Under the pieces are notes generated by a model. It saw nothing but the letters and a program-made list of their open reading frames with translations, was not told where the DNA came from and did not search any database. Shown here piece after piece: positions 15,411 through 63,983 of a DNA stretch of 64,000 nt (its first letter is position 1; each line of letters begins with the position of its first letter). Source of the DNA: a phage; sequence record PZ445488.1; one strand, 5' to 3'. The position numbers and the translations under genes were made by a program.

Positions 15411-15994
15411 TTATATACGCTCTCAGTAATTTCGGTGAGTTCATCGATTCTGTAGTAATGAGATTCTACCATAGAACGTTGAAGCATAATATCTTGGATG
15501 AAATCTTTATCAAGTTGAACATCGGAATTAACACGACATTTCTTAATGATTTTAGTCATCACAATTTCATCGGCATAAGGCAGTGCTTGTTTTAATAAGG
15601 CAGGACCGCCGATAACAGATACATCAACATGTTCAGTAGAAAGTTTAAACGGTACGTCTGTTGAAGGGCCGAACAAGTTAATTTCACTACCAGTCACCAG
15701 GGTAATAAATTCTGCTTGGGTGATATAGAACCGTGCAAGTTCATCAGTTTTAGTCCTAGGCAGTTTTCTGGCCATATCAGTGACAACCACATGAGTACGA
15801 TCTGGTAGTAGACGAGGTAATGACGCAAAAGTCTTAGCACCCATAACCAATACAGTGTTTTTAGTGCGAGCAACAAAGTTACTCATATCTTGTTTGATAT
15901 GCTTCCATGGAAGTCCATCACCTAATCCAAAAGCATATTCTAGTTTATCATCAACTGTTTTAGATGGTGCGCATGCGAATACTAATTTAAGCAT
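15407..15994 (-). CDS. frd: dihydrofolate reductase
   Basis: 195 aa; LGDGLPW and VLVMGAKTF motifs, T4 Frd-like. Confidence 0.9.
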   Translation of the reverse strand: MLKLVFACAPSKTVDDKLEYAFGLGDGLPWKHIKQDMSNFVARTKNTVLVMGAKTFASLPRLLPDRTHVVVTDMARKLPRTKTDELARFYITQAEFITLVTGSEINLFGPSTDVPFKLSTEHVDVSVIGGPALLKQALPYADEIVMTKIIKKCRVNSDVQLDKDFIQDIMLQRSMVESHYYRIDELTEITESVYK

Positions 15995-19084: not shown

Positions 19085-20002
19085 TCAGAATTCGTTAATT
19101 ACACTTGTTAATTTAGAAAGACCCGATTTTACAAAGTATGAATAAATCTTGCCTTTAGGTTGTTGTTTATACGAGTTATAATACTCTATAATGGTTGAAG
19201 CAATATTATCAGGGATATAATCAAAATCAATGAGAACCAAATTTTCTTGATACCGTTTATATTCTTCTGCGCTTAATAATACTTCAGCTTGAGAACGGTC
19301 ATTGGCAATTGCTTCAATAATCGATGTTTTCATACTCGGAGTTCGTTCACCATCAACTCTGGTAAACCAGAAGTCGCCACGAACTCGAACAGATGCAACA
19401 CCATCCTTACGGTCACCTTTAAGAATTTTAGTCATGCAATCAATTTCAGCAGAACCATTCTTAATTTTAACCCATTTTTTCTGAGGCGGAGACCACTGTT
19501 TAACGTTAGGATATTTGTGTAATTGTGTAAAGTCACCATCTGATGCAACAATACATACTTTATGTCCAGCTAATGACAAATATTTAGTTAATACACCGAT
19601 ATGGTCATCCGCTTCATACTTGTCAATGTCCATTACAACGTATGGCATGTATTTCTTAATCTCATCAACAACTTGATGGAGTGCAGTAAAATATCCTTCC
19701 CAATCCCACTTTGAAGCTTCACGATCGGTTTTACGATTTTTCTTGTAATAGTAAGCAAAATCACGTCGCCAATAACCTGAAGTAGCATTATCCATACACA
19801 ATACAAATTTTGTATAGCCTTGCTTACGGAACATCACTACGTTTTTACGAATTGAATTCAAGATTACATGGCGAACCATCGGAACAGTAATTTTATCGCC
19901 ATCTTCAAAGTTGTTTAACGCGGCTGCTAATGCAATGTTACTAAAGTCAGCAAGTGCAATACCTTCTTTGTAATCTTCATCCAACATCATTTCTAAATCC
20001 AT
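19085..20002 (-). CDS. rnh: RNase H (5'-3' exonuclease, FEN family)
   Basis: 305 aa as in T4; syntenic; acidic-residue pattern typical of FEN nucleases. Confidence 0.85.
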   Translation of the reverse strand: MDLEMMLDEDYKEGIALADFSNIALAAALNNFEDGDKITVPMVRHVILNSIRKNVVMFRKQGYTKFVLCMDNATSGYWRRDFAYYYKKNRKTDREASKWDWEGYFTALHQVVDEIKKYMPYVVMDIDKYEADDHIGVLTKYLSLAGHKVCIVASDGDFTQLHKYPNVKQWSPPQKKWVKIKNGSAEIDCMTKILKGDRKDGVASVRVRGDFWFTRVDGERTPSMKTSIIEAIANDRSQAEVLLSAEEYKRYQENLVLIDFDYIPDNIASTIIEYYNSYKQQPKGKIYSYFVKSGLSKLTSVINEF

Positions 20003-40857: not shown

Positions 40858-41058
40858 TCACAAGTTACGTTTAAAAATTTCTGCTACTTCAAGAAGTTCT
40901 TCTTTAGTAGCTGTATCGGTTTGTATTTTATATCGAATTTCTTTAAAGCGTTCTTTAAAGGACTCTGCTGACTCTATATCAAAAAATCTTTGGATAAGCC
41001 GGAATTCCCGGAGCACTGCTTTATCAAAAAGTTCCAAGTCCACGTTATATGTTCTCAT
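40858..41058 (-). CDS. hypothetical protein (rIIA.1 position)
   Basis: 66-aa ORF. Confidence 0.4.
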   Translation of the reverse strand: MRTYNVDLELFDKAVLREFRLIQRFFDIESAESFKERFKEIRYKIQTDTATKEELLEVAEIFKRNL

Positions 41059-41150: not shown

Positions 41151-42251
41151 TTACGCTGTGAAGATTTTATCCCACATCGCAACAACTGCATCTCGGTTAT
41201 ACTTCTTCCATACTGCTTCAGCACGTTTAACTCGAGCTTCGTATGTGTCAGTGAATTCTAATACAGCTTTTGCGTAAAGCGCAACTACTTCTTTCTTAGG
41301 AGTAGAGGAATCAATTTCTACACGCACAGTATCTGGGTCATATTCGAATGTCGCGTGCGGATAATCCTTAAAAACTAACTGAATTACAGGGACACCTTTA
41401 GAGATGGCTTCAATAGAACTATTCTCTACCGTACCCGTGTCAGGACACGTATTGATAAGTGCTTTAGCTGTTTTAAGACGTTCCATGATTTCACTGTGTG
41501 GAGCATCAATAATAACAGGATACTTAGCCGGTGGTGCCCATTTACTAGGACAGTATCCTACACCATTTTCGCCTAGTGCTTTAATCGCTTCAAGAGCAAC
41601 ATCAGTACGACGCATTTTAGTGTCATAACGTTGTGCACTAATAATCAGATCAGTCGCCGGAAGAACTTCAGGTTTATCATTCAAACAAATAACCGGATAA
41701 TCTTCGGCTTCAAACAACGGATTTGCTCGCCAATAATCATAATCAATTTTGTCAGTCAGACCTGAAGTCATATAACAATATTTGCGTTCAAATTCACGGA
41801 AGGCTTTAGTAGGAGCATAACTCTTACCACCGTTCTTATGAATTTGAATAGTCTGGTCCCAAATTTGAACAATGCCACGAGATACCGGTTCAAATGGTGT
41901 TGCCATAAAATTCTTATGAACTTTAGAGAGACCCGCGTCTTTAATTGCCTGAACGGTTAGTTTGGTCGGTTCCATAGTAACAACAAAATCGTATTCATGG
42001 ATGCCGGCTAGTTCAACAATCTTACGAGCCATAGTATAACTCATACCTAGACTGAATTTAGTCAGATGACCAACAGGATGATGATTAACCTTCCAATCAC
42101 CAAATGTGTCATTATCAAAGCCGATATAATCAATATCAGCACCGATAGAAACTAAATATTTCAACACATTTAAATGTACTGCTTCAAGACCACCTTGTAC
42201 ACGTTCTGGGTTAAATGGGACTGCGCGAGATGGGATAAACATAACTTTCAT
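41151..42251 (-). CDS. GT-B-fold glycosyltransferase (GT4-like); candidate DNA hydroxymethylcytosine sugar transferase
   Basis: 366 aa; N-terminal MKVMFIPSRAVPFNPERVQGGLEAVHLNVLKYL resembles the GT4 pattern; C-terminal TGTVENSSIEAISKGVPVIQ resembles the EX7E/EAMAxGxPVI donor-binding motif; no similarity to T4 alpha- or beta-GT. Confidence 0.6.
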   Translation of the reverse strand: MKVMFIPSRAVPFNPERVQGGLEAVHLNVLKYLVSIGADIDYIGFDNDTFGDWKVNHHPVGHLTKFSLGMSYTMARKIVELAGIHEYDFVVTMEPTKLTVQAIKDAGLSKVHKNFMATPFEPVSRGIVQIWDQTIQIHKNGGKSYAPTKAFREFERKYCYMTSGLTDKIDYDYWRANPLFEAEDYPVICLNDKPEVLPATDLIISAQRYDTKMRRTDVALEAIKALGENGVGYCPSKWAPPAKYPVIIDAPHSEIMERLKTAKALINTCPDTGTVENSSIEAISKGVPVIQLVFKDYPHATFEYDPDTVRVEIDSSTPKKEVVALYAKAVLEFTDTYEARVKRAEAVWKKYNRDAVVAMWDKIFTA

Positions 42252-42277
42252 AATTAAGCCTTATTAAAATTAAAATG

Positions 42278-42295
42278 AAGCTCCCGAAGGAGCTT
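42278..42295 (-). terminator. tetraloop hairpin overlapping the gene 39 stop codon
   Basis: aagcucc-uucg-ggagcuu in minus-strand RNA. Confidence 0.45.
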
Positions 42296-44114
42296 AGGAC
42301 ATCCATTCTTTACGAAGTTCTGAATCATCACCCAACAACATTTCAAAGAGTTCTTTCCAATTTTCAGGAAGTTTAACTACGTCGTACACAGGGTTCTGAA
42401 TCATTTCACGATACTCTGACTTTTCAAGGGAGCCCAATCCCTTGATGTATCGAATACTATGCTTAGGCAGCGTATCTTTAACTTCTTCATACTCAGCTAC
42501 AGTATAAAACCATTTTTGAGTTTTGCCAATTTGTGCAATAATTACAGGTGTTTTAACAAAGCGAATACGTCCTTGTTCAAACAATTCAGGCCAATTACTA
42601 AAGAAAGCAAGCAAAGCAGGATAAATACTTCCAAGGCCGTCATGATCGGCATCGGTCATAATTGCAATATTACGATAGTTCGTATTCTCTGCCTTTTCAC
42701 CAAGAATAAGACCTGTGATAGCACAGATATCAAAGAGCTCTTTGTTCTTCATCATATCAGCATATGACATACCCCAGCTATTCATCACCTTACCACGTAA
42801 TGGGAATCCGCCGTGTAGTTCACGGTCACGAACATCAATGAGATAACCAATTGCCGAATCACCTTCTGTTAAGAACAATGTCGTATCTGCATCTTTACCA
42901 CATTGGTTAGCTTTAATATGCTTATGAACCTTAGCTTTAGTTGCCTTTTTAGCTGCTTTAGTTTCTGCGGCCTTTTCTGCTGCCAATTTACGAGCTAATG
43001 CTGCTTCAATTATAGGCATTAAAACTGCTTCAGAATTCAAAATATTTTTTGCCAATTTTTTGGTATCTAATTTAATATGCGTCCGAATTTCGCCATAAGG
43101 ACTTGTTAAACGCTCTTTGGTTTGGGAATCAAAACGAAGGTTCTTCATTCCACGAACGAACATTAAGAGAGTGAGACATTCCTTGATGCGCGCTTTAGTC
43201 ACGTCGATTTTATATTTGCGTTTAATAGCCGGAATTAATTCTTCGCAAATGTCGTCCATCACACATTCAATGTGATGACCGCCATTTTTGGTATGGATGT
43301 TATTAACATAAGTTAAATGACGGAAGCCATCTGGTGACCGACCAATGGCAATAGAGCATCCATCTTGTTCTTGAATGACGGTCTCTTCATCAAATTGTTT
43401 AGCAAACTTCTTAAAGTTACCTTTAATCCTTTTGCCATTAAATTTAAATTCAATACCAGGATAAACGACTGCCAATGTTTGGAGCCGGTCTATAGTAATA
43501 TCTTGGTATATTTTTTCAAATTGATTCATTTCAAAATGAGAGAAATCAGGAATAAACTCGACCTTAGTCCCGTTGTTTTTAGACGGCTTAGATTTCCAAG
43601 AAATATTATCAGCATTATTAGAACAATTAACTGTCAATTCGTTTTTACCATCTGAAGTAGTGCCAACAAAAGAGACAGAAAAAATATTTGTTAATGAAGA
43701 ACCGACACCGTTTTGTCCACCCGTAACACGTTCTTTGTCGTCACCAAAGTTGCCACCAGCTTTTGTACGTGTCCACGCCGCAACTGGTCCTGGAATTTCT
43801 TCTCCTTCAGGAGTAATAACTGTTTCTTGAGGAATACCTCGTCCATTATCTTCAACAGTCACTTTATTAGAATTTAAATCAATACTAACAGAAATTTTAT
43901 TAGCATATTTGAAATTGGTTCGAATAGCTTCATCTACCGAGTTGTCAATAATTTCATCAATTAATTTGAGAACACCTGCAACATATTTAACCTTTTTAAA
44001 TTCACCGAATAGGAAACGTTCTTGTTCTTCATTGGCAACACTTCCAATATACATGCCAGGACGCTTCAAACAATGCTCTTTATCAGATAGCATTTCAATT
44101 TTATTATCAATCAT
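42294..44114 (-). CDS. 39: DNA topoisomerase II large subunit, fused 39/60 form; start set at MIDNKIEM
   Basis: 606 aa continuous ORF; GyrB-like ATPase and Toprim regions; longer than T4 gp39 alone, consistent with the unsplit form. Confidence 0.9.
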   Translation of the reverse strand: MIDNKIEMLSDKEHCLKRPGMYIGSVANEEQERFLFGEFKKVKYVAGVLKLIDEIIDNSVDEAIRTNFKYANKISVSIDLNSNKVTVEDNGRGIPQETVITPEGEEIPGPVAAWTRTKAGGNFGDDKERVTGGQNGVGSSLTNIFSVSFVGTTSDGKNELTVNCSNNADNISWKSKPSKNNGTKVEFIPDFSHFEMNQFEKIYQDITIDRLQTLAVVYPGIEFKFNGKRIKGNFKKFAKQFDEETVIQEQDGCSIAIGRSPDGFRHLTYVNNIHTKNGGHHIECVMDDICEELIPAIKRKYKIDVTKARIKECLTLLMFVRGMKNLRFDSQTKERLTSPYGEIRTHIKLDTKKLAKNILNSEAVLMPIIEAALARKLAAEKAAETKAAKKATKAKVHKHIKANQCGKDADTTLFLTEGDSAIGYLIDVRDRELHGGFPLRGKVMNSWGMSYADMMKNKELFDICAITGLILGEKAENTNYRNIAIMTDADHDGLGSIYPALLAFFSNWPELFEQGRIRFVKTPVIIAQIGKTQKWFYTVAEYEEVKDTLPKHSIRYIKGLGSLEKSEYREMIQNPVYDVVKLPENWKELFEMLLGDDSELRKEWMS

Positions 44115-44790
44115 TAGATTTTCTCTCAAATTGCATGACTATATTTTTGTATGAACCTTCCGGAAATCCACGTTTAACGCTTTCTTTAGCAAATTTACCG
44201 ACCTTTGGTTTATCCAATTCTAACCATAATTTATATAAAGAAGATTCATATTCCCATACAGGACTTTTACGATTTTTAAGCCCACACTTTATAAGCGCTT
44301 CCTTTGTATGTTTCTTATTATAAAATGGATTGTTTTTGCCACTCATTGCTTTAGAATGTTCAGGGCGCTTAATTCCATACATCGGATTAAGATCGCCTTT
44401 CTTGATAATTGATTGTAGTTCAATAGTTTCTTCAGAGTGATTGTGTCCATAAAATGGATTTAACTCTTTTGAAACATCCATACCAAAGCACCCATCGACT
44501 GTGGCATAAGACATGTTGAAAAATTTTTCAGATTTAACCACATTATGCAATTTCTGGTAATACAACTCACAAAACGTCGCTTCTTCACGTGTATCAAATT
44601 CGCCAATAATACATGAATCAAATAAATGAGGATTATCTTTTATCTCTTTATCATAAATTTGTTTATATTTTTTCGACTTTACCGTACCATGATAGTAACT
44701 GTTTGTATGTTTATCAAGATAAGTAGACCCTATATAAAACGGTGGCAACTTATCGCCTGTGTATATTGTTAAGTATGTTATGTATTTCAT
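44107..44790 (-). CDS. putative homing endonuclease-like protein (degenerate GIY-YIG N-terminus with NUMOD3-type repeats)
   Basis: 227 aa; N-terminal YLTIYTGDKLPPFYIGST; repeats NPFYGHNHSEETIE, NPMYGIKRPEHSKAMSGKNNPFYNKKHTKEA resemble NUMOD3 modules of Seg/Tev-type endonucleases. Confidence 0.5.
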   Translation of the reverse strand: MKYITYLTIYTGDKLPPFYIGSTYLDKHTNSYYHGTVKSKKYKQIYDKEIKDNPHLFDSCIIGEFDTREEATFCELYYQKLHNVVKSEKFFNMSYATVDGCFGMDVSKELNPFYGHNHSEETIELQSIIKKGDLNPMYGIKRPEHSKAMSGKNNPFYNKKHTKEALIKCGLKNRKSPVWEYESSLYKLWLELDKPKVGKFAKESVKRGFPEGSYKNIVMQFERKSND

Positions 44791-44825
44791 AAAGGTATTC
44801 TATCATCCGAAATCTAAAGCAAAAA

Positions 44826-53762: not shown

Positions 53763-53951
53763 TCATTCGCAGCTCCCTGAGTCCGAACTACAATCGGAAT
53801 AACTTGAACCAGAATCTCCAGACCAGGATGATACGTAAGAATGATTATAACTTGAAGAGTTTGAAGCAGACTTAGGACGAATAACTTCTTCCATCATGAC
53901 GTCACCAATATATTCCCAACTTTTTTCATGTGTATCAGGAATAGGCATCAT
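53763..53951 (-). CDS. small protein with serine-rich acidic C-terminal tail; start set at MMPIPD
   Basis: C-terminus SASNSSSYNHSYVSSWSGDSGSSYSDCSSDSGSCE; GAAGG ribosome-binding site before the internal ATG. Confidence 0.4.
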   Translation of the reverse strand: MMPIPDTHEKSWEYIGDVMMEEVIRPKSASNSSSYNHSYVSSWSGDSGSSYSDCSSDSGSCE

Positions 53952-54575: not shown

Positions 54576-55097
54576 TTAGTAACCATTATCCTGACGTTCA
54601 AAGTTGTGTTGGTTTTTCAAGTAGTAAAGTTTAAAGATTTCTTCAGCCGAAAGACCTAGACCTTGGAACATATTTAGAACGAAATGCAGAATATCAATCA
54701 TTTCAAATTTAATTTCAAGCTGGTCTTCAGGAGACAGTTCATCAATACGACGATTTCGATATTCAGCATGTTGTGCCTTCCACGGCTTCCATACACTGCT
54801 GGCGGCTTTTTCACCATTGCTCATACCACCAAGTGAAGTCAGCAGTTCACGGAATTCATCATCAATATAATCTTTCTGATTACGCAGCCAATCAACAACA
54901 TCACCAGCAGTGGCCAATTCATCAGGATGTTTGTTATGTTCAGGCTTGTCATTTGCCAGACGAACCTGTAAAGATTTTTGCATATCAAGCATTACCTGCA
55001 GTGGGTCTTTATCTTCGTGAATCAGAGCATTAAAATAAGCTTCTTCTGCTTTATCAACACCAGAAATAAGTTGTGAACATTCATTAAAGTGCGCCAT
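54576..55097 (-). CDS. 56: dCTPase/dUTPase gp56 (MazG-like); start set at MAHFNEC
   Basis: MAHFNEC...DPLQVMLDMQ...ELATAGDVV.W.R.QKD.IDDEFRELLTSLG matches remembered T4 gp56. Confidence 0.85.
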   Translation of the reverse strand: MAHFNECSQLISGVDKAEEAYFNALIHEDKDPLQVMLDMQKSLQVRLANDKPEHNKHPDELATAGDVVDWLRNQKDYIDDEFRELLTSLGGMSNGEKAASSVWKPWKAQHAEYRNRRIDELSPEDQLEIKFEMIDILHFVLNMFQGLGLSAEEIFKLYYLKNQHNFERQDNGY

Positions 55098-63083: not shown

Positions 63084-63983
63084 TTATTCCTCGATTACGA
63101 CATCTTCGTATTTAGGTATATTATACGGCGAAGAAATTAAAGCGTTAAAGTAGATGAACTCACCAAGACCTGGATGGAATACTTCTTCAGGATTTTCGAA
63201 ATATTGAATCTTCGGGCGTCCTTTAAGAATTTTATAGTACTCAGTTTTAGTTGGTTTAAAAATTCGAATCAGCGCTTCTTCAGGATACTTATTTCTGTCG
63301 AAGCTATTATTTGGATCGGTTATATAAAGCGGTTGGCCTAATTGAATTGCACATTCAACCACTTGTTCAAAACGATAGCACGGGTCACTAATTCGAAATG
63401 GATGAAAAATACCATCTAGATGAATAGGAGCCAAATCACCTACAAGACGCTGCATGATGGAAGGACGTATAACTTTCTGAGTTACGATAATCTTATTACC
63501 ATCTGCACCGGCGTTAACCAGCACTTCTTTTTGACGTTCATTCAACACAGTAGTTTGAAGTGAACGATTAACCGACAACATATCGGTTTTTAAGAATTCG
63601 TCAATATAAAAACGTGGTTTATTAGGGTCTGCCGTGATATTGAAATTGAATTCTACATCAAAAGCGCCGTCATATCCAGTGATATCTGTTATTAGAAAAT
63701 CACAATCATAATAAGCAATTAATGAATCAACCACAAATTCATTTTCAGACCAGAAATATTTACGAGTGTTATACGCGTTATCTTTATACCATAATGGAAC
63801 AAACTTAAATTCCGGGAAAAGACGTTCACATTCTTTAATATCAGATGCATTACGTGGATATGTAATCACATCACCTGGATTAGCACGGTGCAAATGAAGT
63901 TGGAAGTTGCCATCCTTAAGGATAGCATACTGTCCAGTTTCATAAGACCGCATACTCAAGATTGGTACGCGGAAAATAGCCAT
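63084..63983 (-). CDS. hypothetical 299-aa protein at the T4 beta-gt locus
   Basis: complete ORF, no similarity to T4 beta-GT or dCMP hydroxymethylase recognised. Confidence 0.5.
   Translation of the reverse strand: MAIFRVPILSMRSYETGQYAILKDGNFQLHLHRANPGDVITYPRNASDIKECERLFPEFKFVPLWYKDNAYNTRKYFWSENEFVVDSLIAYYDCDFLITDITGYDGAFDVEFNFNITADPNKPRFYIDEFLKTDMLSVNRSLQTTVLNERQKEVLVNAGADGNKIIVTQKVIRPSIMQRLVGDLAPIHLDGIFHPFRISDPCYRFEQVVECAIQLGQPLYITDPNNSFDRNKYPEEALIRIFKPTKTEYYKILKGRPKIQYFENPEEVFHPGLGEFIYFNALISSPYNIPKYEDVVIEE

Follow-up and report, generated by a model that had tools for sequence, protein, structure and literature searches.

What does the glycosyltransferase gene between rIIA.1 and the topoisomerase gene of this phage act on, and is it the enzyme that modifies the cytosines of the phage DNA? 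The window, the whole stretch of 64,000 nucleotides that was analysed, matches partial records of Escherichia phage CEV1 at 100% identity, and its identity to numerous Mosigvirus (RB69-like) genomes is 98-99%. The ORF of 366 aa is flanked by rIIA.1 and the fused topoisomerase gene 60plus39 (Table 1). It is present in over 200 phage records, and most of the codons that differ between orthologs encode the same amino acid (54 synonymous and 10 non-synonymous relative to Bas47; 23 and 4 relative to RB69), so this is a real gene under purifying selection. The three peptides by which the preliminary description recognised the protein lie at residues 5-9 (FIPSR), 20-23 (GGLE) and 275-290 (VENSSIEAISKGVPVI). 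The gene was also said to occupy the interval that holds gene 60 and mobE in T4. Gene 60 is indeed there, but mobE is not, the T4 interval from rIIA.1 to gene 39 being made up of 60, 60.1 and mobA.

Table 1. Coordinates of the glycosyltransferase gene, its local RNA elements and other genes discussed in the text.
Feature	Position	Strand	Remarks
rIIA.1	40858..41058		neighbour of the glycosyltransferase ORF; Pfam T4_RIIA1, E 2e-30
Strong stem-loop	41079..41139	minus	11-bp perfect core stem; dG -28.5 kcal/mol, z -4.06
ORF003c-type glycosyltransferase, 366 aa	41151..42251	minus	ATG to stop; ORF list; PHROG 8302 match
AAGG Shine-Dalgarno	42259..42262	minus	7 nt 5' of the glycosyltransferase ATG; read from sequence
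Hairpin with UUCG tetraloop	42278..42295	minus	overlaps the 60plus39 stop codon; dG -10.5 kcal/mol
Fused topoisomerase gene 60plus39	42294..44129		other neighbour of the glycosyltransferase ORF
gp56 dCTPase	54579..55097	minus	97.1% identity to RB69 gp56
Nucleotide-kinase-like protein, 182 aa	62534..63082	minus	RB69 ORF045 ortholog, 98.9% identity
gp46:47-type protein, 299 aa	63084..63983	minus	proposed first (base-proximal, alpha) arabinosyltransferase; 99% identity to RB69 ORF046+047

The gene follows 60plus39 after a same-strand gap of 42 nt. No promoter-like site was found in this gap on the glycosyltransferase strand, and promoter-like hexamers are no commoner in the region than in shuffled sequence. 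Since the gap holds only the small UUCG hairpin, the glycosyltransferase and topoisomerase genes probably share a transcript, together with early or middle replication genes. A role of the hairpin as terminator, with the ORF as a separate transcription unit, was considered. It was rejected because a short stem of 7 bp (z -1.6) lacking a proper U tract speaks against it, and the element is treated as an intercistronic hairpin; the evidence for it is weak on its own. A strong stem-loop sits just 3' of the glycosyltransferase stop codon, ahead of rIIA.1, and 0 of 200 shuffled sequences folded equally well. It has no U tract after it. A terminator is annotated at this place in several related GenBank entries.

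The window protein is an ortholog of RB69 ORF003c (gp3, NP_861693), with 98.9% identity over 366/366 aa and the same genome position, and the equivalence to the RB69 glycosyltransferase that had been left unverified is thereby established. The four substitutions (E16D, D192E, V231A and A327I) do not touch any family-invariant residue. Identity to Bas47_0105, which is labelled 'putative hmC-arabinosyltransferase' in GenBank record MZ501047, is 97.3%. The order rIIA.1, glycosyltransferase, topoisomerase large subunit is common to the window, RB69, Bas47 and JK45. The earlier proposal that the enzyme is novel does not hold: the RB69 gene was identified in 2018, a copy is annotated in MZ501047, a near-identical structure was solved in 2025, and the placement in a pathway came in 2025-2026. 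The window gene is another near-identical copy of a known enzyme and brings no new biology of its own.

PHROG 8302, an unnamed family, covers the protein over profile positions 1-366 of 366 (E 1.7e-222). A Pfam scan at E<=10 matched no family, including PF00534 (Glycos_transf_1) and PF13439 (Glyco_transf_4), and neither did an NCBIfam scan at E<=1. The sole sequence bridge to the Pfam glycosyltransferases is P0016 (PF00534 + PF13692), with 35% identity over residues 248-352. A search of 1.84 billion representative proteins gave 16 matches to the ORF003c family; several are fragments or low-complexity noise, and about ten are true members. A family-alignment profile searched against a set of 5.8 billion proteins did not go beyond what the single sequence had already retrieved. 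Judging from these searches, the family appears simply to be small. ORF003c-type genes occur in 212 phage records, which belong to Mosigvirus, Acinetobacter phages and one Tegunavirus only.

The fold is established by structure. PDB entries 9IQZ (apo) and 9IR0 (with UDP), described as 'phage HY126 glycosyltransferase' and released on 2025-07-16, are 98% identical to the window protein, and the HY126 ortholog binds UDP according to the entry title of 9IR0. An AlphaFold2 model built from 14 family members (pLDDT 91.8, pTM 0.88) has two Rossmann-like domains with a cleft between them and matches 9IQZ with a TM of 0.97, so that the GT-B fold, set beforehand as a test of the assignment, was recovered. 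The next-best structural matches of the model are retaining GT4-type GT-B enzymes. An earlier model from a 6-sequence alignment (pLDDT 60) was used only to find 9IR0 and 9IQZ and was then replaced. Both the GT-B call and the RB69 equivalence hold because of the identities to ORF003c and to the HY126 protein and the match of the model to 9IQZ.

The presumed donor site departs from that of the GT4-type enzymes. The family-invariant residues G20-G21, Q207-R208, R214, E276 and E281 are placed where GT-B donor-binding residues lie (compare Thomas 2018). The preliminary description had seen a segment resembling an EX7E motif here. The second Glu and the helix that follows it are conserved, but the canonical EX7E is absent, and the invariant E276 and E281 form E-X4-E instead. 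In an alignment to P0016, a Pfam Glycos_transf_1 protein, the canonical first-Glu position corresponds to T272. Compared with GT4-type GT-B enzymes (PimA, BshA, MshA, WaaG, BGluT and sucrose-phosphate synthase), to which it is only 10-16% identical, the window protein thus has T272 for the first Glu and the invariant E276 four residues on, and it differs as well in its proposed acceptor, a DNA-bound sugar, and its proposed donor, a furanose nucleotide. The non-canonical EX7E and the lack of a match to any Pfam or NCBIfam glycosyltransferase model were counted against the main reading.

Arabinose in RB69 DNA was reported in 2018 as ara-hmC, and ORF003c was nominated as the arabinosyltransferase by HMM/HHpred (Thomas et al. 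2018, PMC6024577). By MS/MS and NMR the RB69 base is now beta-D-Araf-(1->3)-alpha-D-Araf-O5-5-hydroxy-2'-deoxycytidine, not hydroxymethylcytosine (Lee et al., NAR 2026, PMC13326640). The same work proposes that gp46:47 carries out the first transfer; RB69 gp3 appears there as 'beta-arabinosyltransferase 2' and is not flagged as experimentally confirmed. The gp46:47-type gene is intact in the window and split in the RB69 record. Its product is 46% identical to DLP3 gp79 and DLP1_077 and has no Pfam or NCBIfam match. The ORF045-type protein encoded beside it is assigned as a thymidylate-kinase-like nucleotide kinase (PMC13326640, Table 1), and it belongs to the same modification cluster. A CEV1 contig that exactly overlaps the last 300 bases of the window encodes a ThyA-family protein just past the right end, with 98.7% identity to RB69 gp48 and 24.8% to T4 gp42. 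The kinase and the gp46:47-type gene are thus found in the window and the synthase on the CEV1 contig, while the sugar-activation genes lie outside the window. The proposed model assigns the base-proximal step to the gp46:47-type gene, a sequence orphan that lies at the window's right edge. It is also gp46:47, and not the ORF003c-type gene, that corresponds in position to T4 b-gt, lying between uvsX and the ThyA homolog.

The association of the ORF003c family with this pathway is established from gene neighbourhood. Two paralogs lie inside the Lazarusvirus arabinosylation cluster, where the order is Ara5P isomerase, NDP-sugar pyrophosphorylase/kinase, HAD phosphatase, ThyA homolog, GT1, kinase, GT, GT, and this ties the family to the pathway. 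In DLP1 and DLP3 these paralogs share 57.5% identity, and their identity to the window protein is 42.8% and 40.3%. DLP3 gp77 and gp76 belong to the same family as the window protein, with identity over the full length and the same invariant residues, but they stand in tandem within the arabinose cluster, whereas Mosigvirus has one copy relocated next to rIIA. The DLP3 paralogs build a tri-arabinosyl chain whose third sugar is beta-1,5-linked. In vitro, gp76 and gp77 acting together extend the chain on RB69 DNA by a third arabinose, with UDP-Araf as the donor; the DLP3 GTs are inactive singly, and the third arabinose required both (PMC13326640). The inactivity of the single enzymes suggests that a bookkeeping of one enzyme to one sugar may be too simple.

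The number of ORF003c-type genes rises with the number of sugars. GT1 (gp46:47-type) is present in all of the phages compared. Thanatos and LC53, with one arabinose, have no ORF003c-type gene; RB69, Bas47 and NP, with two, have one, and Bas46 groups with them; DLP3, with three, has two. The double arabinosylation in Bas46/Bas47 and the single one in LC53 are those of Mahler et al. 2025, as relayed by citing papers. GT1-type genes are also the more widespread, with 349 phage records from many genera against the 212 of the ORF003c type. Since copy number tracks chain length and the ORF003c type occurs in fewer records than GT1, the pattern suits a chain-extending transferase and not a base-proximal one.

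We therefore consider it probable that the window protein is a GT-B, UDP-sugar-dependent DNA arabinofuranosyltransferase, the RB69 ORF003c ortholog that adds the second, beta-1,3-linked D-Araf. The candidate role put forward for it earlier, as the enzyme that modifies hmC itself, is not the one to which the published model and the gene-count correlation point: in both it comes second and uses the first arabinose as its acceptor, and the base-proximal step falls to the gp46:47-type gene. No activity assay of the window protein or of RB69 gp3 was found in the literature examined, a body of work to which the paper of He et al. (Nat Chem Biol 2026) on HY126 and that of Mahler et al. (Cell Host Microbe 2025) on Aat did not belong.

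The ORF003c-type enzyme could instead be base-proximal and act on 5-hydroxycytosine directly, with gp46:47 adding the second sugar or serving as an accessory. Thomas 2018 did propose that the modification is the work of ORF003c as arabinosyltransferase, and it is the sole pathway gene whose structure was deposited under the plain name 'phage HY126 glycosyltransferase'. The absence of any match of gp46:47 to a sequence-family glycosyltransferase model points the same way, as does the inactivity of the DLP3 GTs, gp79 included, when tried singly on 5hoC DNA (PMC13326640). However, Thanatos, LC53 and about 137 other cluster-bearing phage records lack an ORF003c-type gene and always keep a gp46:47-type gene beside the 5hodCMP synthase, and the rise of ORF003c-type copy number with arabinose chain length also argues against this arrangement, which we regard as unlikely. 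We take Aat, the arabinose-5ara-hC transferase of Mahler et al. 2025, to be probably the same protein as RB69 ORF003c and the HY126 glycosyltransferase. Deletion of Aat in Bas46 gives a viable phage with altered sensitivity to defences, as described in a paper citing Mahler et al. 2025. If Aat is the ORF003c-type gene, this viability suits an accessory step better than a base-proximal one.

It is very improbable that the enzyme glycosylates 5-hydroxymethylcytosine DNA and so does in this phage what a-gt and b-gt do in T4. The preliminary description had held that the phage very probably makes hmC DNA, reasoning from its dCTPase and nucleotide-metabolism genes. The gp56 dCTPase is indeed kept (97% identical to that of RB69), the ThyA-family enzyme is annotated as dCMP hydroxymethylase in older records, and Thomas 2018 reported ara-hmC. 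The role of gp56 is to clear dCTP from the pool, and a modified dCTP analogue is incorporated instead. The argument from these genes to hmC fails here because neither a-gt nor b-gt (best tblastn E at least 3) nor gene 42 (best tblastn E 0.23) has a homolog in the window, and because the adjoining synthase is of the gp48 type and only distantly related to T4 gp42. RB69 gp48, a gene-42-like ThyA homolog, is a confirmed flavin-dependent 5-hydroxy-dCMP synthase, and the RB69 nucleosides carry an ether-linked arabinose (PMC13326640). In an independent study the mono- and di-arabinosyl nucleosides were likewise obtained from Mosigvirus NP, and the earlier ara-hmC assignment was declared erroneous, RB69/Mosigvirus DNA being arabinosyl-5-hydroxycytosine (PMC13390438). 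For RB69 and NP, then, the hmC reading had already been refuted by published LC-MS/NMR.

Equally improbable is an enzyme that glycosylates a non-DNA acceptor (a host envelope glycan, a lipid or a phage protein): its closest structural neighbours PimA, BshA, WaaG and BGluT do act on lipids, small molecules or LPS, and the Mosigvirus gene is about 21 kb from the arabinose cluster, but the Acinetobacter phage paralogs sit within the DNA-arabinosylation cluster and act on DNA in vitro (PMC13326640), and the family, with its few matches in the representative set, is confined to phages that have the 5hoC/arabinose cluster.

For the second arabinosyltransferase, the pathway may be pictured as follows. 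The flavin-dependent ThyA-family synthase encoded just past the right end of the window would convert dCMP to 5-hydroxy-dCMP, and the gp46:47-type transferase would put alpha-D-arabinofuranose on O5 of 5-hydroxycytosine. The ORF003c-type enzyme, using phage-made UDP-arabinofuranose, would then add a beta-(1->3) D-arabinofuranose to this first sugar on the DNA, with O3 of the alpha-D-Araf as the likely acceptor. The product would be 5-ara-ara-hydroxycytosine, as found in RB69-like virions. For the window enzyme itself, the first-arabinose acceptor and the beta-1,3 linkage would follow from the RB69 model, and a retaining mechanism is suggested only by its structural neighbours. Since the two linkages have opposite anomeric configuration and presumably one donor, one transferase should retain and the other invert. 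If the ORF003c-type enzyme is the one that retains, the donor would be UDP-beta-D-Araf and the gp46:47-type enzyme would invert. A more specific form of this is possible, though rather doubtful: a retaining furanosyltransferase whose donor site is rewired at T272/E276, which uses UDP-beta-D-Araf and works only in concert with gp46:47, in the way that DLP3 gp76 and gp77 depend on one another. The gp46:47 protein would then be an inverting DNA glycosyltransferase of a poorly characterised type.

The enzyme is unlike the DNA glucosyltransferases of T4. The preliminary description saw no resemblance to either of them, and this is borne out: there is no sequence similarity to T4 a-gt (GT72, PDB 1Y6F; best BLASTP E 19) or b-gt (GT63; best BLASTP E 9), and of all PDB sequences the family profile matched, at E<=10, only 9IQZ/9IR0 and neither T4 enzyme. 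In the proposed reaction the sugar is arabinofuranose and not glucose, the base is 5-hydroxycytosine and not 5-hydroxymethylcytosine, and the likely acceptor is a sugar and not the base. For annotation pipelines and readers alike, hmC should not be inferred in T4-like phages from the presence of a dCTPase and a ThyA homolog.

Arabinosylated 5-hydroxycytosine shields phage DNA from restriction enzymes, the Brig1 glycosylase and DNA-targeting CRISPR, and how many arabinoses there are affects which defences recognise the phage. The extra sugar added by the ORF003c-type enzyme would widen protection against DNA-targeting host defences, and the gene matters as part of this recently worked-out phage counter-defence chemistry.

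The fused topoisomerase gene 60plus39, which precedes the glycosyltransferase gene, is a mosaic allele adjoining an insertion that resembles a homing endonuclease gene. It is only 79% identical to its RB69 counterpart, whereas the flanking genes are 91-99% identical. On its other side lies a 227-aa NUMOD3 ORF resembling Seg-type homing endonucleases, followed by the RB69ORF005c homolog, and RB69 lacks this ORF at the corresponding position. Endonuclease-driven gene conversion, or recombination with another lineage, would be expected to produce such an allele.

Features of the window discussed in this section
Feature	Window position	Strand	Remarks
Stem-loop	41079-41139	-	11-bp perfect core stem GGCACUAUUAC/GUAAUAGUGCC; between glycosyltransferase stop codon and rIIA.1
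C(UUCG)G tetraloop hairpin	42278-42295	-	AAGCUCC-UUCG-GGAGCUU; overlaps topoisomerase stop codon
60plus39	42294-44129	-	fused topoisomerase gene
NUMOD3 ORF	44107-44790	-	227 aa; three NUMOD3 motifs, Pfam E 4.8e-11
MotA-box-like middle-promoter match	44797-44821	-	TGCTTTAGATTTCGGATGATAGAAT; just upstream of NUMOD3 ORF
gp46:47-type gene	63084-63983	-	intact, 299 aa
MotA-box plus -10 sites (examples)	2161-2185, 15463-15486, 19178-19202, 53844-53868

The glycosyltransferase gene is flanked by RNA hairpins. The downstream stem-loop is strong (dG -28.5 kcal/mol, z -4.06) and is followed by no U tract; related GenBank records have a terminator annotated within this stretch. The tetraloop hairpin sits within the 42-nt gap preceding the glycosyltransferase start.

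In T4 (NC_000866, 2458-3767), the interval from rIIA.1 to gene 39 contains genes 60, 60.1 and mobA; the mobE of the preliminary description is a slip. Shigella phage JK45 (MK962757) has a partial glycosyltransferase duplicate downstream of the full gene, at 1785-2201, which covers the C-terminal 139 residues (228-366) with 94% identity and has its own annotation as a 411-nt ORF. Either part of the gene was duplicated in tandem, or the second copy is an artefact of the assembly.

The gp46:47-type protein is the proposed base-proximal arabinosyltransferase. Its gene takes the T4 b-gt position, between uvsX and the ThyA homolog, and is uninterrupted here, whereas in the RB69 record it is broken into ORF046c and ORF047c. 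The protein matched no family in Pfam or NCBIfam, and BLASTP found no similarity to the ORF003c-type glycosyltransferase or to T4 a-gt and b-gt.

Across the whole window, the pattern TGCTTYA-N11-13-TANNNT (MotA box plus -10) occurs at 11 sites, against 1.7 expected from shuffled sequences, none of which (0/100) reached that count. This is consistent with conservation of T4-type middle promoters in this phage.
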